In this document: positions 1,524 to 30,490 of the stretch, in pieces | Layout: every line of letters starts with the position of its first letter | Numbering within the stretch: the stretch's first letter is position 1 | NCBI GenBank assembly: GCA_964640155.1 | Contig: CAZXEQ010000001.1 | Coordinates: forward strand, 60,001-92,000 | DNA length: 32,000 nt | Direction: 5' to 3' | From: an uncultured bacterium | Lineage (GTDB): Bacteria; Auribacterota; JACPWU01 | The notes under the pieces: generated by a model | Told to the model about the DNA's origin: nothing | The model's input: the letters and a program-made list of their open reading frames with translations, nothing else | Databases searched by the model: none | Program-made: the position numbers and the translations under genes

Positions 1524-2001
1524 AATATTTTTTGAGAATATTTTCTTGCATCAACCACATCTTTTCATATTGCTTCGGCTGATGGTCTCGATATCCTAAA
1601 AGATGTAAAGTCCCATGAACAATGTATCGTGCGACTTCTTCTCTAAATCTTGAATCAAATATTTTTGCTTGTGCTTTGGCTCTTTCAACTGACACGATGA
1701 CTTCACCCAACATCCATCGTCCATTCATCATTTCTTCCATAGGAAATGCTAACACATCTGTCGCTATATTTTGAGCATGAAACTTTTGATTTAAACGCTT
1801 GATAACTCGATCTGAAACAAGAGAAATATGAAGTTCAATGGGGACTTTTTTACGAAGTCTGACCTTTTTCAAAATAATTTTAGCTAAAGCTTGAATTTTA
1901 TTTTTTCGAAAAGATCCGAAAGAACGATTATCAACCTCTACAAAAGAAACCTCATAAGATTTTTTATGTTGCGGCAAGATCTTCAAATCCTTGAGAAGCA
2001 T
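1510..2001 (-). CDS. ybeY: Endoribonuclease YbeY (rRNA maturation factor)
   Basis: 163 aa with the zinc motif HGTLHLLGYRDH (HxxxHxxxxxH). Sits in the phoH-ybeY-dgkA arrangement. The annotated ATG overlaps the phoH 3' end by 38 nt; in-frame TTG codons nearer the phoH stop are alternative starts. Confidence 0.9.
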   Translation of the reverse strand: MLLKDLKILPQHKKSYEVSFVEVDNRSFGSFRKNKIQALAKIILKKVRLRKKVPIELHISLVSDRVIKRLNQKFHAQNIATDVLAFPMEEMMNGRWMLGEVIVSVERAKAQAKIFDSRFREEVARYIVHGTLHLLGYRDHQPKQYEKMWLMQENILKKYYDGI

Positions 2002-3022
2002 CTATTTGATAGGAGGATTTATTTGATTTCCTTGCAGAACCACGCTTGTCTGCCTTAGAAGACGAATGAGGAGAACGATCTTTTTCATAAGCACGAATGA
2101 TCTTTTTAACCAATTCATGACGCACTACATCTTTGTCTGTAAATTTCATAATTTTAATACCGCGCACATCTTGCAAAATTGCTTTTGCGTGAGAAAGGCC
2201 TGAAAGCTTATGCGCAGGTAAATCAACTTGAGTAACATCTCCTGTGATCACTGCTTTAGAATTAAAACCCAAACGCGTCAAAAACATTTTCATTTGTTCA
2301 ACGGTGCTATTTTGAGCTTCATCCAGAACAATAAATGAATCGTTGAGTGTTCGACCTCTCATATAAGCTAAAGGAGCAACTTCGATCAAGCCACGATCAA
2401 TATAGCGCTGAATTTTATCCATTTCGACCATATCATAAAGGGCATCATAAAGAGGTCTTAAATAAGGATTAATTTTTTCATATAAATCTCCAGGCAAGAA
2501 TCCAAGGCTTTCCCCTGCTTCAACAGCAGGTCGAGTCAAAATCACACGCTTTACTTTATCGTCTAAAAGCCAAGAGACGGCCATGGCCATAGCCAAATAA
2601 GTCTTTCCTGTGCCGGCAGGACCAATTCCAAAAACAACATCGTATTTTCGAATCGCTTCAATGTACTCAGCCTGATTGCCAGATTTAGGATAAATCAAAC
2701 TTTTACGAGAAGAAACGCGTATAGCATCTGTCGGAACCTGATCCGAAAACTCTTCAGACCGATCTCCATTGGAAGCAGATAAAGCATGAATAATGTCTGC
2801 ACGATCAATGGCTTTCCCAGACTCTTGCAATCTGGTTAATTCTTCAAAAAGCTTTCTTGCTTTTTTAATACTCTCTTGATCCCCAATCATCTTAATAAAG
2901 TCGCCGCGTGACACGACCTTAACCTTGAGAGCTTTTCCGATAATTTCTAAATTTTCATCATCATGAGCAAAAAGAGACCTTGCCATGCGTGCATCTTTTA
3001 AATGAATCGTTTCTTTTGGCAC
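1964..3022 (-). CDS. phoH: PhoH-like ATPase
   Basis: 352 aa with Walker A GPAGTGKTYLAMA and the Walker B-like FIVLDEAQN. GTG start preceded by GAGGTG with a 5-nt spacer. Confidence 0.9.
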   Translation of the reverse strand: MPKETIHLKDARMARSLFAHDDENLEIIGKALKVKVVSRGDFIKMIGDQESIKKARKLFEELTRLQESGKAIDRADIIHALSASNGDRSEEFSDQVPTDAIRVSSRKSLIYPKSGNQAEYIEAIRKYDVVFGIGPAGTGKTYLAMAMAVSWLLDDKVKRVILTRPAVEAGESLGFLPGDLYEKINPYLRPLYDALYDMVEMDKIQRYIDRGLIEVAPLAYMRGRTLNDSFIVLDEAQNSTVEQMKMFLTRLGFNSKAVITGDVTQVDLPAHKLSGLSHAKAILQDVRGIKIMKFTDKDVVRHELVKKIIRAYEKDRSPHSSSKADKRGSARKSNKSSYQIDASQGFEDLAAT

Positions 3023-3075
3023 TTCATCACCTCGCGAAATAATTTTAACGCAAATTTATCTAAGAACCAAAGAAA

Positions 3076-4401
3076 TTATTTTTTCTTCGATAAAAATTGT
3101 GACAACTGGGGTGTCATTTTTTTAGAAACTTCAACCTCAAGAAAAGTGCCATTCTCATCATATTTTTTAGAAATGACACGCCCATGACGATGTAATAAAG
3201 ACAGCCAATCTCCTTCTTGATGGGGAATGAAAATATGCAGCACCTCTAAATGTTCCTGCAAGTGCTCCTTAATTTTCGCTCTTAATTCTTCTAAACCTTG
3301 TCCAGACTTGGCAGAAGCAAAAATGATTTCAGTCTCATCTTTTAAACAATGAGGAATTGTAGGAGACCCCCCAACTCGATCAACTTTATTTAAAACAAGA
3401 ATATGTTCCACATCTTCTGCATGTAAATCTTTTAAAACTTGAGCTACCACTTCATATTTTTCTTCAACCAAATGATCACTTAAATCCAAAACATGAATCA
3501 AAAGATCCGCATGGGTCACTTCTTGTAATGTTGTTTTGAATGATTCCACCAAATGATGTGGAAGTTTTCGAATAAATCCGACCGTATCGGACAAAAGAAA
3601 TCCTCTACATTCCGGAAATTGAATTTTTCTGACTGTAGAATCTAATGTTGCAAAAAGTCTATCCTCTGCTAAGTTTTCACTCTCAGTCAGACGATTGAAT
3701 AAGGTTGTTTTGCCTGCATTGGTATAACCTACAATGGCCACCAGCGGCCATTCATGGCGTTCTCTATTTTTCTTCTGAACTTTATGTTCGGTTTCGATAT
3801 CACGAAGCTCTTGAGTTAATTTCATAATTCTAGTCCTTAACCGACGTCGATCTACTTCTAATTGTTTCTCTCCAGGACCTCGTGAGCCGATACCTCCATC
3901 TTGTCGAGATAAATGAGTCCATTGATGGGTAAGACGAGGCAACAAATACTTTAACTGGGCAAGTTCTACTTGAAGCTGAGATTGTTTAGTGAATGCTCTG
4001 CGGGCAAAAATATCTAAAATGAGTTGAGTGCGATCAATGACACGCACTTTAAAATTTTCATTTAAATTTCTAGACTGGACTGGGCTTAAATCATCATCAA
4101 AAATAACAACTTGTACTTCGCTTTCTTGCGCCTTTGCTGCAAGTTCCTCCAGCTTTCCCTTGCCAATAAAAGTAGCCGGATGGGGTTTTGTCAGTTTAAC
4201 AATGGTTTGATGAGTGACTTTTGCTTTTGCAGTTGAAACAAGCTGAGCCAACTCTTCTAAAGAATTCTCAACATCCCACGCTCTTGACCGTCCCCAATCG
4301 ACACCAATTAAAAAAGCTTTTTCGGGTCCTTGAATCACATGTTTAAGCGGCAAGGCAAACTCCTGACAGGAACGAAGACAGTCATCAGTGATAAGTCGCA
4401 A
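3076..4401 (-). CDS. hflX: GTPase HflX
   Basis: Contains the HflX N-domain (GKGKLEEL, LILDIFARRA, QVELAQLKYLLPRL), a G1 box GYTNAGKTTLFN, DTVGF and NKVD. The maximal ORF begins with TTG at 4401. A better-supported start is the TTG at 4353, which is preceded by AGGAG (4360-4364) with a 6-nt spacer. Confidence 0.9.
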   Translation of the reverse strand: MRLITDDCLRSCQEFALPLKHVIQGPEKAFLIGVDWGRSRAWDVENSLEELAQLVSTAKAKVTHQTIVKLTKPHPATFIGKGKLEELAAKAQESEVQVVIFDDDLSPVQSRNLNENFKVRVIDRTQLILDIFARRAFTKQSQLQVELAQLKYLLPRLTHQWTHLSRQDGGIGSRGPGEKQLEVDRRRLRTRIMKLTQELRDIETEHKVQKKNRERHEWPLVAIVGYTNAGKTTLFNRLTESENLAEDRLFATLDSTVRKIQFPECRGFLLSDTVGFIRKLPHHLVESFKTTLQEVTHADLLIHVLDLSDHLVEEKYEVVAQVLKDLHAEDVEHILVLNKVDRVGGSPTIPHCLKDETEIIFASAKSGQGLEELRAKIKEHLQEHLEVLHIFIPHQEGDWLSLLHRHGRVISKKYDENGTFLEVEVSKKMTPQLSQFLSKKK

Positions 4402-20086: not shown

Positions 20087-20296
20087 ATGAAACCTTGCTG
20101 CGGAAAAGAAATCAAACGTTCTATCAAGAAACATCGGGATGTAGCTACCTGCGATCAATGTAAGTCCCTCATTTTGGCTTACGGAGATGAAGCAGACTTT
20201 CAAAAAATGCTTCAGGGATTGGAAAAAAGCAAAATCTCTTTTGAAACTGGAGTTTCTGGCAAGTTAAAAATTGTTATCAAGCATTTAGTTAAATAA
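20087..20296 (+). CDS. Small hypothetical protein (69 aa) with CC...CxxC cysteines
   Basis: The ORF starts 6 nt after the AKR stop. Cys residues lie at positions 4, 5, 22 and 25 (CDQC), so metal binding is possible. No strong SD and no family recognised. Confidence 0.45.
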   Translation: MKPCCGKEIKRSIKKHRDVATCDQCKSLILAYGDEADFQKMLQGLEKSKISFETGVSGKLKIVIKHLVK

Positions 20297-20307
20297 ACAA
20301 AAATGAA

Positions 20308-23300
20308 TCAAGCTGCAGCATTAAAAGACTCCGATCTTTCTACAATCACTTGTTTTCTTTGAACATTGGGCAACTCTCTCAGCGACTTTTGCCCTCTATC
20401 AATCTGTCTTTTCCTTGAACGTCGTATTTGTGTACCAACAGCTTCTTCTCTTTCTCCCAATTCACGAGCAATACGATTGACCCATCCTTGAAAAATCTCC
20501 TCTTCGAAAGGTTTTTCCTCTTCACTCATTTGATCGAGGCTCTCAGCAATTCTCATAATCGCTAATTCTAATTTTCCTTCTCGGAAAAGTTTTTCCACTT
20601 CGGCTTCTAAAGTCACTGTTGCTAAATCCTGTTGCTGTTGCCTTTGTCTTAGTGCTACCAAGCCAAAAACAATGGTTAAAGCTGGAGGTAGAATCATTCT
20701 TCTTGGCGCACCGCTATCAGACACTGTAAGACGAATATCTGGCGCATTATAATACCTGGTTCCGATTGAGTTATCTCCTGTAGAAGAAGCCTCTACGGCT
20801 CCTGGAACAGAAGGCAAAGCTAAAAGCCCTATCACTCTTTCATAAAGACTACCTGTCCATCGTCGGACCTCTAAGACTTCACCCCTCTCATCCCTAACAT
20901 TTGGATGTAGAGAAATAGCATCTCTTAAGGCCACCAATGCTATTAAAAAATCTCTTCGAACAATCACCTGATTCCCTGATAACTGTACATCCTCTAAATC
21001 CAGACTGTCAGAGAAAACCAAGCGTCCCTCACGATAAAGGGTCAATATTTGAGTTTTTCTTTCAGGGGAAAGATAACGCCCCCAAAATTCTATTAAATAA
21101 TGATCTACAACATCGATATGAGAAGGTTCTGAAGCCTGATACTCAGAACTAGAAATATAAAAATCGCCGGCTCTCCAATGTGCAATTCGCTGCTGACGCG
21201 CAACATCAGCCACCCCTTGCAACCTCTCTCTTGTAATGATGTCTGATGACAATTGAATAAATCTTAAAATTTCATAAGGTTTTAAAGCCAAATAATTTGC
21301 AACTTGTACTCTTTGTTCTATTTGTTCATACGTTTCTTGGAATGTTGAGTTAGATGGAAAAGTACATTGCCCAAACAAAAGCCTAATAGGCTCTAAAAGT
21401 ACATTTAACTCTCTTTGCGTTCTGTCTCTAACCTTTTGTATTTGATCTGCAGGTAAGTCCTGTCCCAAATCCAAAAAGGTTCTCTCCTCTTCAATAACCT
21501 GTCTTGCAGTTTGAAGCAAAGCTGTAAAAACACGTTCAATCGGTCGATGACCCAAGACCTCTTGTTGACCACTATTTTGATCGAAAGGAGCTCTTTCGGA
21601 ATAAATCCTTTGAAGATTCATTCTCGAAAAAGCTATTTCAGGAGTGATAAGCTCACTTACATCTCCTTTCCCCCTAACAAAACTAGCTTCGGAAACAATC
21701 ATTTCACTCAGAGCAATCATAATATCTGTTTCACCAATGCCCATTTGACGTAACGCTTGAAGATAATTTTCTGTATCAAAACCCTGAGCAGGAATAATCT
21801 CTAAAGCAATCGGCATAAGGATTGCTAGAAGCTCAGCTCTTGTTTCCAGAAAATCCTGCCAATGCAAAATGAGATAAATAGAAAACACCCGAAAAGCGTT
21901 TTCTTGACCCAAAATCTGACGGATTTCTTGAGGTGTTTTTTCTCCCAAATCTCCAAAAACTTGGTCAAAAACATAATTTCTAAAATGAAAAGAACCATAC
22001 AAACTTGCAGAAACAAAAATTTGAAGCTTAAGGTTCACCGATAAACTTGGAAAAATTTCTTGAATGATTCTTTCCAATCTTTCTCTTGTTGCTGCATCTA
22101 AAGAAAGGTTTAGAGCCTGCGATATTAATGAAATATAAAAAGCCTTTTCATTATCACTAAGACTACCTCTTCGAATAGACACTTCTGCCTCCGTTAAGAT
22201 TTGAGTAACAGCTTCTTGTGATGCAAACCCTCCTAATCCCATAGCTAGATTTAAAAGATTTTGAGCAGCTGAGCGATAATAACTATCGTGATAGCTCACG
22301 GGTGTATACGGAATATCTATATTGCAAAGTCGAACGGGATGATACCGACGTTGATAACGCTGAAAAAGAGCTCTTATTTGTGTTAAATCTCCAGAGGCAA
22401 TCACTCTGCGGGCATGAAACAGCTCAATATTACTCAAACCTGTCGAGATCTCACCGAATTCACGCATCACTGTCTGAGGGTCGTCAGAACGAGCAGCCCA
22501 TATACCCGGCAAAGTTATTTGTCTTACAGGATGATTCTGTAAATATTCTAAAAATCTTTCCCCCACTTCATAAAAATTGTCACTGGGGATAGCGGCTTGA
22601 TGATATAGTCCAAACACTTTTAAAAGAAAATCCAATTCAGAAGAAGCCCCATGATCCCTTAATTCCTGATCAATATTTCTAAAATCAGGGTCCATTGCTA
22701 AAATATCCTCAGCAATCATCACCGATAGAACTGGGATCAGCACGCTTTCAACAGCATCAACTACTCCTGCCCTGTAAAAAAAATTTTGATAAAAAGCCAA
22801 TGCCTCTATAATATTTTGAGGTCTTAGATTTCTGCGCTCTTCTCGAACGAGATCTACCACAAAAGACCGTGCAGCTACTTTAGCTTCTTCTGAAATCGGA
22901 GCTCTATTTACCTCAAATAAAAAACTCTGAAAACGACTCATTTGAACTCTTAAATTATCCCCTTGTCCAGAATCTGTTCGTCGAGACATAGACAGAAAAA
23001 TCCTTCGAGTATCATCAAAATATCTCTGCCGTTTTTGAGGATCCGCCAAAAGCCTCATAGGTAACCGCATCAAATCACCTTCAAGACTATCCCTTCGCAT
23101 CACTGCAAGAAGCCGCTCTTGAATAGGAATATCAGTTAATGGACCATTCACTTGTTGTTGAATCACTTGAACACGTGGCCTTCCCATCAAAGGGCGAACA
23201 TGTTGATTCATAAATAAAACCCAAGGGTCGTTGGTCGTAACCACTCCATTCAATTGAAGATAATTGAGAAAACTTCCATTGAATCCAATAATGCTTTGTC

Positions 23301-26300
23301 GTGGTTCATCTGGTGTATATCCACGGTCTGGAGTGAAGGATGGGTTACGACGATGCCATTCCTGCGCAATCACTTCATTACTTCCCCAAATTAAAAGCCC
23401 TAAACCTTGTCGGAGTTGTTCTGCATGAGGTGAGGCTGGAACACGAGCAGGATCCGCAAAAACATAATACCAATCATCAGGATACTGAGCTTGCAATCGA
23501 ATAAGTTCTTGAAAAAAATAGCGCTGCCGAGAAAAAAAATTTAAGAAGCTGCCCATCATCCGAAGCTCCTCCGAAGTAAAAGAAGATAAATCTCCAAAAT
23601 GAAGCGGAGCATAAATGTTATTTAAATATTCTGCCGTAATTATTGCTGGAGTAGGATCATAATTACCTCCATACCCTCCTCTGGATCTCGCCCTAGCTAC
23701 CTGTGCTTGATATTGAGCTTGAGGACTATCTTCTCTTCTCCAGCGATCTTCTATCCCCTCTAGTTGAATCCACAAAGTAGACCTTTGAACAGGTGTCAAT
23801 CCTTGTGAAAATTGATCAAATGCCGTGTTTGCAATTTCTTGGTTTAAACCCCAGCGTCTGCTTTCTCGAATCAAATAAGCTCTAAACGCATCTCCATTTC
23901 CAACATCCACGACTTTTCCATCCGCAAGCTTTTGAGCTGCCATCAAAGCCACACGTCCAAACAAGTCATGAATCATTCTTTCATTTTCTTCTCCCAAAGC
24001 GCCAATATCAGTTAAAAGACCTAAAGCAACATCATTGACCATTTGAAACATATCCTCTATAAGTCGAAAATCAATGGTTCTATCTACATTTTCATAAGCT
24101 CCCACAGCTCTTGAAGCAATTTCCAGTTTCTGAGATATATAAATATCTGTTCTTCTCAACAAAGTCCTCAAAGAATAGATTTGCCTTAAATCTTCTGGAT
24201 AATCTGAATCTGAATAAAGAGGGGCTTGGTTAGAAGATTCATTCGATTGCCCTGCTGTTCTATCTGGCCTGGCGGCTTGGTCTCTTTCGTGATGTTGTCG
24301 AATTACACTTTCCTGAAAAACTTGTAAGCGTCGATCTCCTTGTCGAACAAATGTGGTAGGATCCCTGTTCACCCATCCGCGCCCTCCTCTAGGATTCATG
24401 GTTTGACAAATAGCATGAAGCTCTGAAATATCAATCCAGCGACTGCTATTCACATCAATTGCCCCATGAACAAGTCGGGCTGGAATTCCTACATATCTTA
24501 AAAGAAGCATTTCATACATCGCTAAAACAGCACAAGCAGCTTTGATCTTCTTCCTGCGCCTAAAAGATTCTTCTTCAAACCCATGATCCAACCAATGTTC
24601 AGGAGGAACTGCAAACATTCGTGCAGCATCTTCATCCAACCCATATTCAAATCGATCTTGCATAATTTGCTCTACACCTGTGAGTCGAAGGTCATAATCG
24701 TCCAACATTCTCAAAGCATCGAGCCGAGCTCTTAAGGTCGGAGGAATGTTTCTTTCACTCTCAGGAAGTTGTGTATAGTGGGCTATAAATTCTGATGAAG
24801 GGGTAAAAGGTACCGGTTGAAACTCATCGAGATGATAAGAAACAATATTATATCCTACGGGAAGATGAAAACCTTGTAAACGCAAAGTAGCATCTCCGTA
24901 AGAATTTGGCACGAGATTAAATCCTTCTGTTCGACCATTGACACGAATACTTGAAGGGTCAACACGAGAATGAGATGTTCTAAAAAGGCTTATTTCTGAG
25001 CCCTGAAAATACATAGTCACTGTCACTCCCTCACCCATTCTTGTTTCAGATAAGGGAGCATCTGGGAAATCAAGTACTTCCTGAACAACTGCTCCATTAG
25101 AATGAACACTCGAATAAGTCCCCAAAGAATAAAATCCTCCGCCTCGACTCAATTGAGCCAACCAGACGCCTCTCTCACGCAAACGTCCATTTTCAAAAGC
25201 ACTGTCCGGTTCTGACAATGTATTAGGTCTAAATTCTCTCATTCCAGAAAGCGTTTGAAGATAACGCGCCCCTCTTTCCACATTATGAAAAAATAAAGAA
25301 GCTCTTCTAGAAACTCCAGCCATCATCTCTAATCTTCTAAAACCTCTCACAAAAGAAGGAACCCAAAAAAGTGTTTGGGCTGGAACTGTTTCTACGGTTT
25401 GACGAAGACGAACGCTTGACTGAGCAACAGATGCAGCTTGATCTCTGATCACATGAACAATGGTTTCAGAATGAAGTCCAAAACTTGAAAATACGATATA
25501 TAAAACAATCCCCCATCTTAATATCCTAAAAATAAGCCTTTCTTTTAAAGAAGTTAAAAAGCTAACCCAAGGTCTGGCTACAGTTGTTTTAGATTCTTTA
25601 ATTTCAAATTTTTCTAAGATTGCTTTTTCTTCAGTCTGTACAGGAGGCGCTTTTAAGGTTTCCAATGTCTTTTGACTTTGATCTAACAGAACTTTGTGAA
25701 TTTTGGTTTCAAGATCTTCTAATTCTCCAATAACATCTCTTGATCGGTAAGATTCTAATCTTTCAATTTTCTTCTTTCTTTGATTCATTTGTCCTACTTT
25801 TTCTTTCAATTGATCTAGCTCTTCTGCCAACCTTCTTTCCTCCAAAGCATCACGCTCAATTGAAAAAGAATTGCTTCTAATTTTTTCAAGTAGGTTTTTT
25901 TTCAGTTCTTCTGCGCTTCCTTCACCCTCAATTAATCCTTCTGCATTTTCTTCAATTCCAATCAACCTTTGATATTTCTGATGTAATTGAACATTTTCTC
26001 TTTCCTTACGAGCAATATCCACCCGTATCTTTTCTAAATCCCCCTCTAGTTTTTTTTGCTTCAATAACAGGTCTTCGACTCTTGCCTCTCCGAATATATT
26101 TTGCAGCTCTTCTTTTAATCGAATTATTTCTCCTTCAAAACGCCAAGGAGGTGCATCTCTTGGCGTTTGAGTCATGGTAACTTCTGAAGTAGGAAGCAGA
26201 CTTTGAATATGTTCAGTCCTTCGATAGATTCGATCATTTCGAAGCGTTCCTTTCTCCTTCTCTCTCAAACGTAATTCCAGTACATCTGCGAGAAAAATTC

Positions 26301-29300
26301 CTGCTTCCTTTTGAGTTTCAGGATTTAAAGTTGGGAAAATCTCTACTAATTCTTGAGCAATTAAAATTAAAGGAACAACTTCAACCTCACCATTTTCATA
26401 AATACGCTGCATATCATATCCATTCACAACAACTCTTATGAGTGGAGATTCTTTTTGAGAATCAATAATTTTAAGTCCCTTGGCCAAAAGCTTTCTTAAA
26501 CTAAACGTAAGAAGCGAATCCTCAACTTGTTTTGATTGAGTCTTTTCTTCAAATGCAATTCCATGTTCTTGAGGTCCCGTTCGAAGAAGAGCTATCAGAA
26601 ACTCTAGAGTCTGTTCTTCCAAAGTTTCTCCCTGTACATCCTTTCGAGACAGGCCAAATGTTTTTTCTCCAGAAACGTTTTTGGGAAAAGCAAATTGAAG
26701 AAAATTTTTCAAATCAAGAGGAACGGTATAAATCTCATAAATAGAAGAGCTTTTTTTTCCTTCAGCAATATCATAAGCCTCTTGAATGGTTCTTTCCGCT
26801 TGATGATAGCGAGAACGCCCCTTAATAACATGCCGACTTCCTAGCGAAATAAATTCAAATACAACTCCGGGAAAATCATTTGTTATTCGAATATCTATAG
26901 ATTCTATACCTGCAACACTGATCTGATAGTGGATCAAGAAATAAGCCAGACGCAAGGACTGTAAATATTGATCCAAAGCCTGAATCTTTTTGAACAGGTC
27001 ATTTTTAGTCTTATCATTCGCGCTTATTGACAAATTCTGAAGTTTTTTTCGAATTATTAAGATTTTTAAGATTTCAGAAGGATAATCAATATTCTGAGCA
27101 GTTAAACTTCTGGCCCCCTCTTTTAGAAAAATAGAATCAACACCTATTTCATCTAATGAAATTTTTTCTTTCGTGGCACTTTTATACGAAATTAATAAAT
27201 TCTCTGAAGAACTCTGTCCGTCTTCAGAATCATCATCTAAAACAACTCTTTCTCGAAGAAAAACAGCCTCAGTCGATTTTAGATTTGACGACTTGCCTCT
27301 GACAACTTGAGCTACCTGCCCCTTCTGATTTCGTTTCAAGAAAAAAATATTCTTTCCCTCCCATACATCTAAAGGATTTCGTGAAATCTTCGGACTGACA
27401 ATCACAGCGGGGGAAAACAGATTATAGGAGGCTAAAAATGATACCAACTGTTCTTCTTGAGCTGTCAGCGCGCTTAAACTTTCAAAAGGATTTAAGGATA
27501 TTTCTGTTTGATCCTCAGAAATAGGCACAGATAATGTTTTTTCCTCTTCTATTTCTAAAGCTCTTTGTCTTCTTAGATTTTTAAATTTTACAAAGAGAGT
27601 TTTTCCTGTTTTTTTAAGAGTTGACCCAACCCATTTAAAAATAACAAAAACATTAAATAGAACAAAGGGAGCAATCAATAAAGTTAAAAAAGGCAAACCT
27701 AAATAGATAGAAAGAAGAGAAGCAGCATTTAAAACAATATAAAAATCTACAGCAAAACCAACCATCTTTTGTACTTTTTTAGGCAATTTTCGATAAAGGG
27801 GTGTTAAAAAAAATTCAGAAGCAATTCCCAGAAGAACAAGGGTTAATGCAGCACTCATTGTAAAATGAGCTCCGATGAGGCAAATAAAAACAACAAAAGG
27901 AAGAACAAGATAATACAAAAGCGTTTGGCTAACTCTACCTAAAATATGAAAGGCTCGACGCAAAAATCCTTTTTTTACCTCTTCCTTCTCAGTCTTCTTA
28001 AAATACCACCGACCAAATTTGACAATACCTGACTCTTCACCCCAGCGTCTGGCCACAGCTGCCACAACTAAACGCCCTGCTGTTTTCATATTTGGATTAA
28101 ATCGATCCCATTGCAAGGTGCAGTTTTTATGTTTAGAAATGACTTCCACCAAAATTCTTCCTTCTTTATCATCTAAATCTCTTAGTATATCCCTATGTTT
28201 CTTAAACCATCGATTGACGATTTGATGTACTGTTTTTTGATCGGCCTTACTTAAAACATCGATCAATTCTTTAAGCAATGGCTTTAATATATGCCCTTCA
28301 TCCAATTCCAACTGCTCATGAATTTCTCGCTCCATCGCACTCACTGGAGAAAGCATTTTTTTGATAGGATCAGAACTCGGTCGTAGCAAAAGTCTATCTT
28401 TGGAGAACTCTTCCCCATGAATCTCATCCCATTGTGTTTTCATCACAAAGTCGTAACGTTTAAATCCCAACTCCCCACGAATTTCAGGCGTACAAGCAAT
28501 ATAAGAAATCTTTTTCTTCTCCAAAATTTTCTGAATACCCTCGGTATGAAAACCTCCGGTGATCAACACAGTCACCGGTCCCCTGTCTCCAGTCTCCAGC
28601 AAATCACTATTTTGGGTTTTCTGACTAGGAACTCGCGACTGACGACTGGTGACCATTAACGCTTTTTCAGCCATCACTTCATCACGTTTCAGAGCAAACT
28701 CATAAAATTTTAGAGCTTCTCTCATGCAATCATCAAATTGATGAATTATTTGAGAATTCTCTAGATTTAAATCTTGTACATTATATTTTTGAGATAAAGC
28801 CTGCATCGTTATTGCTCTTGATTGCGTATTTTTAAATCCTTTTAATCCAGTTGTTTCTAACTCTCTTCGCGTCAACTCCAAACGAATTAATTTCTTAAAA
28901 ATCTTCCATGTTTCATCAAAATCAGCAATGTCTTCTACTTTCTCCAATCTTGCCTGTTCATAAAGAAATCCTTGAACAAAAGATATTAATTCATTCCACA
29001 AAACATCAAAATCAAACTTCTTCTCTTTTTGGCTAATGCTAAGCCACGTTTGTAATTGAGGATATTCCTTCTGGAATAAATCTTTTTGAACACTATTTTC
29101 TTTTTCATAATTCTGTTTTAATTGAGCCAAGTATTCATCTGCCTTAATATGACCTAATCGATATTCCAATGTTATTTTCACAATTTCTTTGAATGCATTA
29201 GGCGATAATCTTGTCTGAAGATCTTTGATAAGTTGATCTAATTGTGTTTGTGCCTCCTTAGAATCAAATGCATTGGTTTCCTGAAAAAAAGTCAGAAAAT

Positions 29301-30048
29301 CTTTCAAACTCGAGGTTTTAGCTAAAAGATGGGGGTGAGATTTAAAAATAAATTCTAATTCTTTCACCCATTCTTGCCATTTCGGAGAGTTTGAGTGTAA
29401 AGATTTGGAAAACTGATCTATTCTTTTTAAATCACTTGAGTAAGCTTTGTCTTTCAAACTCTGAAGCCAAGCATCAATCGCTGACACACCTTCTTTTAAA
29501 CTCTCTGCATATTTTCGACAAAGATGAAACGCTTTAAAATTTTCAGAATAAAGATGGGGCTCCTCAACTCCATAAAGAGAAGTTTCGTTTTTAAGTCCCA
29601 TCACAATCTTAGAAAACTCTGCTCCTGTAAGAAGCCCTTGCCTAAGAAATTTTCGTGCTACTTGCGTCCTCGCGTCTTTATCTGGGAAAATTTCATAAAG
29701 AAGAGTTTGTACGGGTCCAGATGCCCCCTCCACTAAAACCTGATCAAGTAAATTCTCACGGGCAAGCTGCTCTAATGTAATTGCAATCCTCTCCTGAGCC
29801 TGTGCCTGACAATGAATATCTCTGATAAGGACCCAAAGTACAGGCCCTTTCCCATTAAAAACCTTATTGATTTTCATACCTCTCAAAGCAAGAGAATCAG
29901 GCGAAATCTCTGCTATTGGAACAATACGAATCTGGGCAGATGGAATTAGATCTGCTTTCGCATGGGAAAACGACTCAAGATTCAAAGAATCTAGACCGAT
30001 GAAACACGAGAGGACTATGGCTATTAATTTGACAATGATTTTTCTCAA
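20308..30048 (-). CDS. Giant (3,246 aa) multi-pass membrane protein with a transglutaminase-like Cys-His-Asp core; most of its length matches no family I recognise
   Basis: A single 9,741-nt ORF with a TTG start at 30048. The N-terminus MRKIIVKLIAIVLSCFIGLDSLNLESFSHAKA looks like a signal peptide. Hydrophobic blocks lie at aa 709-808, 1505-1525 and 3118-3133. A coiled coil spans aa ~1309-1485. The TGase-like signature is at aa 1839-1898. The antisense ORFs in the track are short and unsupported. Confidence 0.85.
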   Translation of the reverse strand: MRKIIVKLIAIVLSCFIGLDSLNLESFSHAKADLIPSAQIRIVPIAEISPDSLALRGMKINKVFNGKGPVLWVLIRDIHCQAQAQERIAITLEQLARENLLDQVLVEGASGPVQTLLYEIFPDKDARTQVARKFLRQGLLTGAEFSKIVMGLKNETSLYGVEEPHLYSENFKAFHLCRKYAESLKEGVSAIDAWLQSLKDKAYSSDLKRIDQFSKSLHSNSPKWQEWVKELEFIFKSHPHLLAKTSSLKDFLTFFQETNAFDSKEAQTQLDQLIKDLQTRLSPNAFKEIVKITLEYRLGHIKADEYLAQLKQNYEKENSVQKDLFQKEYPQLQTWLSISQKEKKFDFDVLWNELISFVQGFLYEQARLEKVEDIADFDETWKIFKKLIRLELTRRELETTGLKGFKNTQSRAITMQALSQKYNVQDLNLENSQIIHQFDDCMREALKFYEFALKRDEVMAEKALMVTSRQSRVPSQKTQNSDLLETGDRGPVTVLITGGFHTEGIQKILEKKKISYIACTPEIRGELGFKRYDFVMKTQWDEIHGEEFSKDRLLLRPSSDPIKKMLSPVSAMEREIHEQLELDEGHILKPLLKELIDVLSKADQKTVHQIVNRWFKKHRDILRDLDDKEGRILVEVISKHKNCTLQWDRFNPNMKTAGRLVVAAVARRWGEESGIVKFGRWYFKKTEKEEVKKGFLRRAFHILGRVSQTLLYYLVLPFVVFICLIGAHFTMSAALTLVLLGIASEFFLTPLYRKLPKKVQKMVGFAVDFYIVLNAASLLSIYLGLPFLTLLIAPFVLFNVFVIFKWVGSTLKKTGKTLFVKFKNLRRQRALEIEEEKTLSVPISEDQTEISLNPFESLSALTAQEEQLVSFLASYNLFSPAVIVSPKISRNPLDVWEGKNIFFLKRNQKGQVAQVVRGKSSNLKSTEAVFLRERVVLDDDSEDGQSSSENLLISYKSATKEKISLDEIGVDSIFLKEGARSLTAQNIDYPSEILKILIIRKKLQNLSISANDKTKNDLFKKIQALDQYLQSLRLAYFLIHYQISVAGIESIDIRITNDFPGVVFEFISLGSRHVIKGRSRYHQAERTIQEAYDIAEGKKSSSIYEIYTVPLDLKNFLQFAFPKNVSGEKTFGLSRKDVQGETLEEQTLEFLIALLRTGPQEHGIAFEEKTQSKQVEDSLLTFSLRKLLAKGLKIIDSQKESPLIRVVVNGYDMQRIYENGEVEVVPLILIAQELVEIFPTLNPETQKEAGIFLADVLELRLREKEKGTLRNDRIYRRTEHIQSLLPTSEVTMTQTPRDAPPWRFEGEIIRLKEELQNIFGEARVEDLLLKQKKLEGDLEKIRVDIARKERENVQLHQKYQRLIGIEENAEGLIEGEGSAEELKKNLLEKIRSNSFSIERDALEERRLAEELDQLKEKVGQMNQRKKKIERLESYRSRDVIGELEDLETKIHKVLLDQSQKTLETLKAPPVQTEEKAILEKFEIKESKTTVARPWVSFLTSLKERLIFRILRWGIVLYIVFSSFGLHSETIVHVIRDQAASVAQSSVRLRQTVETVPAQTLFWVPSFVRGFRRLEMMAGVSRRASLFFHNVERGARYLQTLSGMREFRPNTLSEPDSAFENGRLRERGVWLAQLSRGGGFYSLGTYSSVHSNGAVVQEVLDFPDAPLSETRMGEGVTVTMYFQGSEISLFRTSHSRVDPSSIRVNGRTEGFNLVPNSYGDATLRLQGFHLPVGYNIVSYHLDEFQPVPFTPSSEFIAHYTQLPESERNIPPTLRARLDALRMLDDYDLRLTGVEQIMQDRFEYGLDEDAARMFAVPPEHWLDHGFEEESFRRRKKIKAACAVLAMYEMLLLRYVGIPARLVHGAIDVNSSRWIDISELHAICQTMNPRGGRGWVNRDPTTFVRQGDRRLQVFQESVIRQHHERDQAARPDRTAGQSNESSNQAPLYSDSDYPEDLRQIYSLRTLLRRTDIYISQKLEIASRAVGAYENVDRTIDFRLIEDMFQMVNDVALGLLTDIGALGEENERMIHDLFGRVALMAAQKLADGKVVDVGNGDAFRAYLIRESRRWGLNQEIANTAFDQFSQGLTPVQRSTLWIQLEGIEDRWRREDSPQAQYQAQVARARSRGGYGGNYDPTPAIITAEYLNNIYAPLHFGDLSSFTSEELRMMGSFLNFFSRQRYFFQELIRLQAQYPDDWYYVFADPARVPASPHAEQLRQGLGLLIWGSNEVIAQEWHRRNPSFTPDRGYTPDEPRQSIIGFNGSFLNYLQLNGVVTTNDPWVLFMNQHVRPLMGRPRVQVIQQQVNGPLTDIPIQERLLAVMRRDSLEGDLMRLPMRLLADPQKRQRYFDDTRRIFLSMSRRTDSGQGDNLRVQMSRFQSFLFEVNRAPISEEAKVAARSFVVDLVREERRNLRPQNIIEALAFYQNFFYRAGVVDAVESVLIPVLSVMIAEDILAMDPDFRNIDQELRDHGASSELDFLLKVFGLYHQAAIPSDNFYEVGERFLEYLQNHPVRQITLPGIWAARSDDPQTVMREFGEISTGLSNIELFHARRVIASGDLTQIRALFQRYQRRYHPVRLCNIDIPYTPVSYHDSYYRSAAQNLLNLAMGLGGFASQEAVTQILTEAEVSIRRGSLSDNEKAFYISLISQALNLSLDAATRERLERIIQEIFPSLSVNLKLQIFVSASLYGSFHFRNYVFDQVFGDLGEKTPQEIRQILGQENAFRVFSIYLILHWQDFLETRAELLAILMPIALEIIPAQGFDTENYLQALRQMGIGETDIMIALSEMIVSEASFVRGKGDVSELITPEIAFSRMNLQRIYSERAPFDQNSGQQEVLGHRPIERVFTALLQTARQVIEEERTFLDLGQDLPADQIQKVRDRTQRELNVLLEPIRLLFGQCTFPSNSTFQETYEQIEQRVQVANYLALKPYEILRFIQLSSDIITRERLQGVADVARQQRIAHWRAGDFYISSSEYQASEPSHIDVVDHYLIEFWGRYLSPERKTQILTLYREGRLVFSDSLDLEDVQLSGNQVIVRRDFLIALVALRDAISLHPNVRDERGEVLEVRRWTGSLYERVIGLLALPSVPGAVEASSTGDNSIGTRYYNAPDIRLTVSDSGAPRRMILPPALTIVFGLVALRQRQQQQDLATVTLEAEVEKLFREGKLELAIMRIAESLDQMSEEEKPFEEEIFQGWVNRIARELGEREEAVGTQIRRSRKRQIDRGQKSLRELPNVQRKQVIVERSESFNAAA
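20650..20697 (-). other. C-terminal hydrophobic helix (aa 3118-3133) followed by a 113-aa charged tail
   Basis: MILPPALTIVFGLVAL followed by RQRQQQQ. It is short for a TM helix (16 aa), so this call is borderline. Confidence 0.45.
24350..25070 (-). other. Transglutaminase-like (papain-fold) domain with a Cys1839-His1878-Asp1896 triad
   Basis: KAACAVLAMYEMLLLRYVGIPARLVHG (Cys codon 24532-24534). SELHAICQT (His codon 24415-24417). GRGWVNRDPTT (Asp codon 24361-24363). This matches the canonical G-x-C-x-x-f-A...lR-x-x-GIPAR-x-V-x-G...HAW...GW-x-x-x-DPT pattern. A beta-rich region precedes it (VTVTMYFQGSEISLF...ATLRLQG). Confidence 0.75.
25474..25536 (-). other. Single TM helix (aa 1505-1525) separating the two compositional halves of the giant protein
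   Basis: LIFRILRWGIVLYIVFSSFGL. The N-flank is basic (LKERLIFRILR), suggesting an N-in/C-out orientation. Confidence 0.6.
25595..26125 (-). other. Coiled-coil segment (aa ~1309-1485) of the giant protein
   Basis: Heptad-like, E/K/L/Q-rich sequence: LKEELQNIFGEARVEDLLLKQKKLEGDLEKIRVDIARKERENVQLHQKYQRL ... LDQLKEKVGQMNQRKKKIERLESY ... EDLETKIHKVLLDQSQKTLETLK. Confidence 0.6.
27625..27924 (-). other. Two bilobed hydrophobic blocks (about 4 TM helices), aa 709-808 of the giant protein
   Basis: Block 1 is TLLYYLVLPFVVFICLIGAHFTMSAALTLVLLGIASEFFLTPLY. The basic loop RKLPKKVQK follows. Block 2 is MVGFAVDFYIVLNAASLLSIYLGLPFLTLLIAPFVLFNVFVIFKWV. Both outer flanks are strongly basic. Confidence 0.7.
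29953..30048 (-). other. Signal-peptide-like N-terminus of the giant protein
   Basis: It shows the three signal-peptide regions: n-region MRKIIVK, h-region LIAIVLSCFIGL, and a c-region ending AKA-D (AxA-like). Confidence 0.55.
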
Positions 30049-30253: not shown

Positions 30254-30490
30254 ATGACAATACGAGTGAGAGAAGAAAACCATGAAGTAAAGCATGTCTT
30301 GATCGAATTATCAGAAGCGGTTAGTACATTTTCCGTCGAGGTCGAACCAGGACTTATCTATCATTACGACGAACAGCTGAACCCTACACAAATTGAGGTT
30401 AAAGATACAGCTCTAATTGAACCTTTTCTTAAAGGTTTACAGGAAGTTCTTAAAGATCCAAACGTCAAAATCATTCGTAAAGCTGCTTAA
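30254..30490 (+). CDS. DUF2283-like small protein (78 aa)
   Basis: Strong SD (GAGGTG). The pattern VLIELSEAVSTFSVEVEPGLIYHYDEQLNPTQIEV resembles the DUF2283 consensus (ALYIxLSxxxxxxSEEVxPGVIxDYDExGxxxGIEI). Confidence 0.55.
   Translation: MTIRVREENHEVKHVLIELSEAVSTFSVEVEPGLIYHYDEQLNPTQIEVKDTALIEPFLKGLQEVLKDPNVKIIRKAA

Follow-up and report, generated by a model that had tools for sequence, protein, structure and literature searches.

Introduction

The membrane protein TgpA of Pseudomonas aeruginosa (PA2873; PDB 6G49/6G4H) is defined by the five-helix membrane domain DUF3488 and is co-transcribed with PA2875 and PA2874, and its periplasmic domain displays Ca-independent transglutaminase activity in vitro (PMC3507681). 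Works cited in that paper describe prokaryotic hydrolases built on the transglutaminase fold, namely the pseudomurein endoisopeptidases PeiW/PeiP and the O-antigen deamidase WbmE. Another group of described systems is formed by the giant proteins of Omnitrophota, among them the Archaeovorins, which exceed 30,000 amino acids (aa) and contain numerous transmembrane helices and SecA DEAD helicase domains (West-Roberts et al. 2023 bioRxiv). In the three papers on Omnitrophota giant proteins that were consulted, a transglutaminase domain is not mentioned. The gene studied here lies on the minus strand of a 32,000-nucleotide stretch of DNA from an uncultured bacterium (contig CAZXEQ010000001.1, positions 60,001 to 92,000), the whole of which is referred to as the window, and encodes a giant protein of 3,246 aa. 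Judged by profiles, alignments and predicted fold, aa ~1600-1900 of this protein are a divergent but genuine transglutaminase-like (papain-fold) module composed of a pre-domain, a helical segment and a core. The module is homologous to transglutaminase-like enzymes and is predicted to work like them, yet its sequence does not place it in the TgpA family.

The giant protein presents the same Cys-His-Asp order and spacing as TgpA, which is likewise membrane-tethered and carries its domain after hydrophobic helices. The two proteins differ in that their identity is only 22-24%, the giant protein is ~5 times longer, and its helix upstream of the domain is poorly conserved among its homologues. DUF3488 (PF11992) is absent, since PF01841 was the only Pfam match to the giant protein at E values up to 1 and a scan of the protein with NCBIfam gave nothing. 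Genes of the MoxR/DUF58 type (PA2875/PA2874-type) were found neither among the window ORFs (open reading frames) of at least 100 aa, over 32 kb, nor in the syntenic locus L001 of the orthologue P0002 described below; a sequence-only reading of this DNA, made earlier, had already remarked that these partners were missing. In view of the missing DUF3488 and operon partners, the module is not assigned to the TgpA family.

The remaining systems compare with the locus in other ways. PeiW/PeiP and WbmE belong to the same superfamily, and the envelope-directed hydrolysis attributed to them in the paper that cites them is the functional model favoured for the module; this comparison is by description only and serves as a lead. 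The giant Omnitrophota proteins (Archaeovorins and others; Seymour et al. 2023) come from the phylum to which the homologues found here are annotated, and share with the giant protein a signal peptide and transmembrane architecture, long stretches that lack annotation, and enzyme-like domains embedded in the chain. Unlike the Archaeovorins, the giant protein has only 3,246 aa and ~5-6 hydrophobic helices, and it gives no SecA_DEAD match.

A transglutaminase-like module in the giant protein

The gene and the parts of the module are located in the window as follows.

20308..30048, minus strand: giant ORF, 3,246 aa, TTG start (ORF listing; alignment with P0002)
24823..25203, minus strand: beta-rich pre-domain, aa ~1616-1742, probably a beta-sandwich (strands in AF2 model 1)
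24544..24816, minus strand: helical segment before the core, aa 1745-1835, with an invariant PPxxWLxHGF insertion (AF2 model 2; alignment)
24358..24543, minus strand: predicted transglutaminase-like catalytic core, aa 1836-1897 (PF01841 positions 51-108; hhalign; Foldseek)
24532..24534, minus strand: Cys1839 codon TGT, putative nucleophile at the N-terminus of the core helix (alignment; model 2)
24415..24417, minus strand: His1878 codon CAT, putative general base (aligns with the His of the HAW motif)
24361..24363, minus strand: Asp1896 codon GAT, third residue of the putative triad (aligns with the Asp of the DPT motif)

The sequence-only reading had drawn attention to window positions 24350-25070, which correspond to aa 1660-1899 and thus take in roughly two thirds of the beta-rich pre-domain as well as the helical segment and the core, and had described there three motifs bearing a Cys-His-Asp triad. 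These are present as it claimed within one 3,246-aa ORF, at aa 1837-1862, 1876-1882 and 1891-1898, with 39 residues from C1839 to H1878 and 18 from H1878 to D1896; the corresponding distances are 41/16 and 39/16 in two canonical transglutaminase-like proteins. A bare C-x39-H-x18-D pattern carries no weight alone, and it is the profile evidence that exceeds chance. When the whole giant protein was searched, PF01841 (Transglut_core) was the sole credible Pfam match, aa 1836-1897 aligning with profile positions 51-108 at E 6.3e-4 (20.4 bits, the curated cutoff being 23 bits). On the excised 334-aa region the same profile reached 24.1 bits (E 4.7e-5), above the cutoff, and it matched at the aligned place in all three members of the subfamily, with 26.7 bits in P0002 and, for the best of the three, an E of 2.8e-9. 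A match to PF08379 (Bact_transglu_N), which the sequence-only reading had also suggested, was absent at E values up to 1.

Distant relationships were explored with a profile built from the three sequences. Against the PDB sequences it retrieved 14 matches at E values up to 10, all of the transglutaminase family: 13 transglutaminases, TG2 and factor XIII among them, and the homologous protein 4.2. The best was TgpA (6g49), not significant at E 0.019 but with the full Cys-His-Asp set aligned, and the Cys pairs with Cys277 of TG2. Cropped to 170 aa and run against 5.8 billion proteins, the profile found just two distant matches, P0054 and P0055, with E ~1 and both annotated with PF01841. Profile-sequence comparison with these two by hhalign gave 95.2% (E 2.9e-8) and 95.9% (E 5.5e-9), with 36-38% identity over ~70 columns and the Cys, His and Asp falling on the motifs GVCQDFAH, HAW and DPT. 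These pairwise E values are optimistic, as both targets had been chosen as the best matches, and the independent test is that provided by Pfam.

The core identity of 36-38% applies to the canonical bacterial transglutaminase-like putative cysteine proteases (PF01841 with or without PF08379; P0054, P0055 and 3ISR), which share with the module of the giant protein the GIPAR motif and an upstream F-x-Y motif. Relative to these forms the module has AxC where they have GxC and HAI where they have HAW, accommodates an insertion of ~11 residues containing the invariant PPxxWLxHGF, and is devoid of the PF08379 N-domain. The C-terminal 'GRDYxDxxP' segment of the canonical forms, with its predicted strands, is gone, and low-complexity sequence follows the DPT motif.

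Two AF2 models were produced. Model 1, computed for the 334-aa region from the alignment of the three sequences, was of low quality (pLDDT 54); it showed strands at aa ~1616-1742, in a block with pLDDT 54-80, and its Foldseek search returned weak beta-sandwich matches and none at E <= 0.001. It was therefore discarded for fold assignment and is kept as weak support for the pre-domain only, which bears out at low to moderate confidence the beta-rich region that the sequence-only reading had placed ahead of the core. Model 2, of aa 1745-1914 with two canonical enzymes added to the alignment, reached pLDDT 73 and pTM 0.75. It contains helices at model positions 7-14, 25-35 and 40-54 and others, the Cys being the first residue of helix 94-107 and His133 and Asp151 lying at the edges of strands 134-138 and 148-150. 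This predicted order of helix and strands corresponds to the papain/transglutaminase arrangement. The top Foldseek matches of model 2 in the PDB were the TgpA entries 6g4h/6g49 (E 6.5e-5 / 1.2e-4, TM-score 0.52-0.54, 161-162 aligned columns), followed by the Cytophaga putative cysteine protease 3isr and TglA 9crn, and then by TG2, FXIII and TG3; all the listed matches with E up to 0.03 are transglutaminase-like. TgpA, to which the sequence-only reading had likened the domain, is indeed the closest solved structure by profile and by Foldseek. Pfam, hhalign, Foldseek and the invariance of the residues in both homologues agree on a transglutaminase-like/papain-fold core with all three putative catalytic residues.

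Homologues and conservation of the module

An exhaustive phmmer search with aa 1585-1960 against 1.84 billion cluster representatives, which stand for ~15 billion proteins, found only two proteins at E <= 0.001, P0002 and P0053. P0002 (3,696 aa, E 2e-100) is 52% identical over the searched region and aligns with aa 1-2097 and 2279-3080 of the giant protein. Its locus, L001, has the order IspD, IspF, small ORF, giant gene, small ORF and aldo-keto reductase, as in the window, and by alignment and gene order P0002 is a true syntenic orthologue. P0053 (4,029 aa, E 7e-54, 42% identity) comes from an Omnitrophota metagenome-assembled genome (locus L002). It has in common with the giant protein the mid-region, the transglutaminase module and part of the C-terminal region, its N-terminus is different, and a HEAT-repeat array is inserted.

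Scans of metagenomes and a genome scan for more homologues recovered only the contig of P0053 itself. A word-index homology search with the domain alone gave zero hits, and the three-sequence profile missed even the giant proteins in this search; these negatives are unreliable, because the whole-protein and exhaustive searches show the region in P0001 (the NCBI model of the giant protein), P0002 and P0053.

C1839, H1878 and D1896 are invariant in the alignment of the three sequences, which are 41-54% identical. Identity between the giant protein and P0002 amounts to 61% in the core and 50% in the pre-domain, compared with 40% over the whole protein and 22-32% over aa 800-1500. By this measure few parts of the giant protein are as well conserved as the transglutaminase module.

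Probable catalytic activity and alternative explanations

The module is probably an active Cys-His-Asp thiol enzyme that would form an acyl-enzyme on C1839. The predicted nucleophile Cys1839 would act on a peptide-side-chain or isopeptide amide, with His1878 as the general base and Asp1896 orienting His1878, and the resulting acyl-enzyme would be resolved most probably by water, the activity being that of a peptidase, isopeptidase or amidase. The giant protein would tether the enzyme to the membrane, and the targets may be envelope or surface proteins or the giant protein itself. Hydrolysis is favoured because hydrolases, namely PeiW/PeiP and WbmE, are among the prokaryotic members of the fold that have been characterised. 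The sequence-only reading had called the domain probably active; the conservation of the triad in all three sequences speaks for this, and activity is deduced from that residue conservation.

Several points weigh against a genuine and active module. The full-length PF01841 score lies under the curated cutoff, and no canonical transglutaminase was retrieved by phmmer with aa 1600-1960 against the PDB sequences, where the result was noise (cysteine desulfurase, E 1.4), or by single-sequence phmmer against the 1.84 billion representatives. The same results could be expected from a chance resemblance, in which an ordinary helix and strands would bear C, H and D at suitable distances without homology. 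This is extremely unlikely, given that a single Pfam model picks out the equivalent place in each of three sequences, that 14/14 PDB profile matches are of the transglutaminase family, with hhalign at 95-96%, and that the listed Foldseek matches at E up to 0.03 point uniformly to the same fold. The fold of model 2 is biased by the two canonical enzymes in its alignment; model 1, built without them, gave no significant match. Moreover, with n=3 sequences and 29/62 core columns invariant anyway, the invariance of the triad is weak statistically, and the active site may be incomplete, since the Gly of GxC, the Trp of HAW and the 'GRDYxDxxP' segment are absent. These last points, together with the presence of protein 4.2 among the PDB matches, would suit a catalytically dead structural or binding module like protein 4.2, in which the triad would persist only through recent divergence. 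Such a module is improbable: the triad is kept at 41-54% identity, even in P0053 with its different N-terminus and domain content, and the core is better conserved than the protein as a whole. A further point against it is the loss of the Cys that is typical of inactive homologues such as protein 4.2.

If the module is active, the fate of the acyl-enzyme has to be considered. The choice of hydrolysis over transamidation comes from general knowledge of the superfamily, and it has against it that the closest structure, TgpA, transamidates in vitro (PMC3507681). The main rival is accordingly a true crosslinking transglutaminase, which would transfer Gln acyl groups to Lys or other amines and thereby link the giant protein, or proteins of the envelope, covalently into a surface layer. 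The Ca-independent activity of TgpA and the intact triad agree with a crosslinker. However, transferases and hydrolases are inseparable by sequence and fold in this superfamily, hydrolases are represented among the characterised prokaryotic members cited in PMC3507681 (PeiW/PeiP as isopeptidases, WbmE as a deamidase), and the giant protein offers no substrate clue. Crosslinking is unlikely, although less so than the other alternatives. A TgpA orthologue that had become part of a larger protein, with its MoxR/DUF58 system encoded elsewhere, would explain why TgpA is the best PDB match by profile and fold, why a hydrophobic helix precedes the domain, and the occurrence of a MoxR-DUF58-VWA-BatA/BatD cluster ~3.5 kb downstream of P0053. 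This explanation is very improbable. It is largely refuted by the missing membrane domain, there being neither DUF3488 nor any other Pfam match beyond the core; the identity to TgpA is low and the profile match is not significant; MoxR/DUF58 are absent from the 32-kb window and from L001, and in L002 a UDG gene and three signalling genes intervene. A hydrolytic thiol enzyme of the transglutaminase fold is the preferred reading.

Layout of the giant protein and membrane topology

Outside the module the following elements were delimited in the giant protein.

29959..30048, minus strand: signal-peptide-like N-terminal segment, aa 1-30, hydrophobic core aa 4-22 (Kyte-Doolittle peak 2.31)
28429..29871, minus strand: conserved N-terminal module, aa ~60-540 (BLAST over aa ~1-620 gives E as low as 1e-75)
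27631..27936, minus strand: four hydrophobic helices, aa ~705-806, forming two hairpins with Lys/Arg-rich flanks (hydrophobicity)
25480..25536, minus strand: hydrophobic helix, aa 1505-1523, ~100 aa upstream of the domain, possible fifth transmembrane helix (Kyte-Doolittle 1.74)
20749..24201, minus strand: long C-terminal region, aa ~1950-3100, without Pfam match, partly common to P0002 and P0053
20650..20706, minus strand: weakly hydrophobic C-terminal segment RMILPPALTIVFGLVAL, aa 3115-3133, possible last transmembrane helix (Kyte-Doolittle 1.37)

The ORF runs uninterrupted for 3,246 codons from its TTG, and P0001 (3,225 aa) begins at the TTG of codon 22, that is, 21 codons later. The longer form is favoured because the orthologue P0002 aligns from residue 1 of the giant protein. 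The start chosen in P0001 leaves out window 29986-30048 (minus strand) and so cuts off the hydrophobic signal-peptide-like segment (aa 4-22).

The hydrophobic elements of the giant protein are the N-terminal segment, four helices in aa 705-806, one at aa 1505-1523 and a weak one at aa 3115-3133. The transmembrane helix that the sequence-only reading had set before the domain (aa 1505-1523) is convincing in the giant protein itself, with a Kyte-Doolittle value of 1.74, and marginal at the aligned places of both homologues (1.34 in P0002 and 1.37 in P0053). The segment at aa 3115-3133 scores 1.37, and 1.52 in P0002, and is absent in P0053. Two ways of assigning the topology contradict each other: counting helices from a cleaved signal peptide leaves the module in the cytoplasm, whereas the positive-inside rule puts it outside. 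A TgpA-like periplasmic position of the module is therefore only a possibility.

In the C-terminal region, BLAST aligned aa 2279-3080 with P0002 and aa 2003-2047 and 2389-2893 with P0053. The best-conserved stretch between the giant protein and P0002 is aa 601-700 (27949-28248, minus strand), just before the four-helix cluster, with 73% identity; it has no domain assignment and is more conserved than the transglutaminase core. P0053 carries near its ends two copies of a ~195-aa segment (aa 430-623 and 3758-3952; 42% identity, E 4e-54), each with a DHEWTEH motif (HExxxH, in which the spacing exceeds that of the zincin HExxH by one residue), and also a long HEAT_2/PBS-type repeat array; neither the duplicated segment nor this array occurs in the window protein.

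The N-terminal module family

Searches with the whole protein (BLAST) revealed about 50 other proteins (P0003-P0052; 1,800-5,300 aa) from Omnitrophota and Elusimicrobia that match the giant protein only over aa ~1-620. Nearly all of those carrying this N-module start with a hydrophobic signal-peptide-like segment, often ending in an AxA-like motif. The N-module (~480 aa) has as conserved residues D77, H79, Q85, E107-G108, E144, G160, E162, R455, TGGFH at 497-501, P521 and Y532. No Pfam family matched it above threshold; weak matches to PF04187 (ChaN/Tiki superfamily) appeared in 2/12 members at E 2.7e-4, and a profile of the N-module run against the PDB sequences gave only non-significant EF-hand-like matches. 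The near-invariant D-x-H...Q, EG, GxE, R and TGGFH motifs, along with the weak PF04187 matches, suggest a ChaN/Tiki/TraB-like fold. L001 encodes at 23423-26617 a further protein with the N-module, a 1,064-aa paralogue (hhalign 100%).

The enzyme-like domains found downstream of the N-module vary from one relative to another and comprise PGK and FBPase, class II aldolase and PGM, PGI, TIM, GAPDH, glycogen phosphorylase, trehalose synthase and others. The PGK, FBPase, aldolase, PGM and PGI domains resemble those reported for the Archaeovorins. The central-carbon domains are divergent copies (GlpX FBPase, PGM/PMM) located behind a signal peptide, and many of the relatives have no further transmembrane helix. 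The combination of a signal peptide with divergent glycolytic domains therefore implies exported glycolytic-enzyme-like domains. As its N-terminal alignments indicate, the giant protein is a member of an undescribed N-module family of Omnitrophota and Elusimicrobia, more than 50 giant proteins strong, whose proteins carry differing enzyme domains.

Gene neighbourhood

The neighbours of the giant gene in the window are IspD/IspF and an aldo-keto reductase, as in the syntenic L001. Two small ORFs on the opposite strand, 30254-30490 (plus) and 20087-20296 (plus), flank the giant gene, and their positions are conserved in L001; one encodes 78 aa (MTIRVREENHEVKH...) and the other a Cys-rich protein of 69 aa (MKPCCGKE...CDQC), possibly a zinc ribbon. 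In L001, but not in the window, a HepT/MNT-type toxin-antitoxin pair (PF01934 and PF01909; 21376-22204) is also inserted in the interval from the giant gene to the aldo-keto reductase.

The cluster found downstream of P0053 occupies 16019-22489 of L002, in the order MoxR, DUF58, VWA, BatA-like, TPR and BatD, and is separated from P0053 by the UDG gene and the three signalling genes, which are of two-component type. No MoxR/DUF58/Bat-type cluster was seen in the window or in the available stretch of L001. A link between P0053 and the Bat cluster was considered and set aside as a probable coincidence, four unrelated genes intervening and the cluster being absent from the other two loci.

Concluding remarks

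Giant proteins of Omnitrophota are abundant and almost unannotated, and are suspected of taking part in attachment to, or predation on, other cells. The type of domain recognized here is well known; its setting, a rare and truncated subfamily in a new architecture, is new. The subfamily is extremely rare, with three proteins among the 1.84 billion cluster representatives, and its truncation relative to the canonical forms makes it a probe of the minimal requirements of the transglutaminase/papain core. More surprising than the transglutaminase domain is that one N-module is combined with many enzyme domains, several of them glycolytic, which merits a study of its own. A speculative and rather doubtful extension would regard the module as interchangeable cargo in an undescribed family of exported, membrane-tethered giants built on a ChaN/Tiki-like N-module, the cargo here being an envelope isopeptidase or crosslinker that might be used for binding to, or breaking through, the wall of a host or prey cell, as PeiW/PeiP act on pseudomurein. 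Each enzyme domain securely placed in the Omnitrophota giants provides a concrete residue that can be mutated, here C1839, and a chemistry that can be tested.

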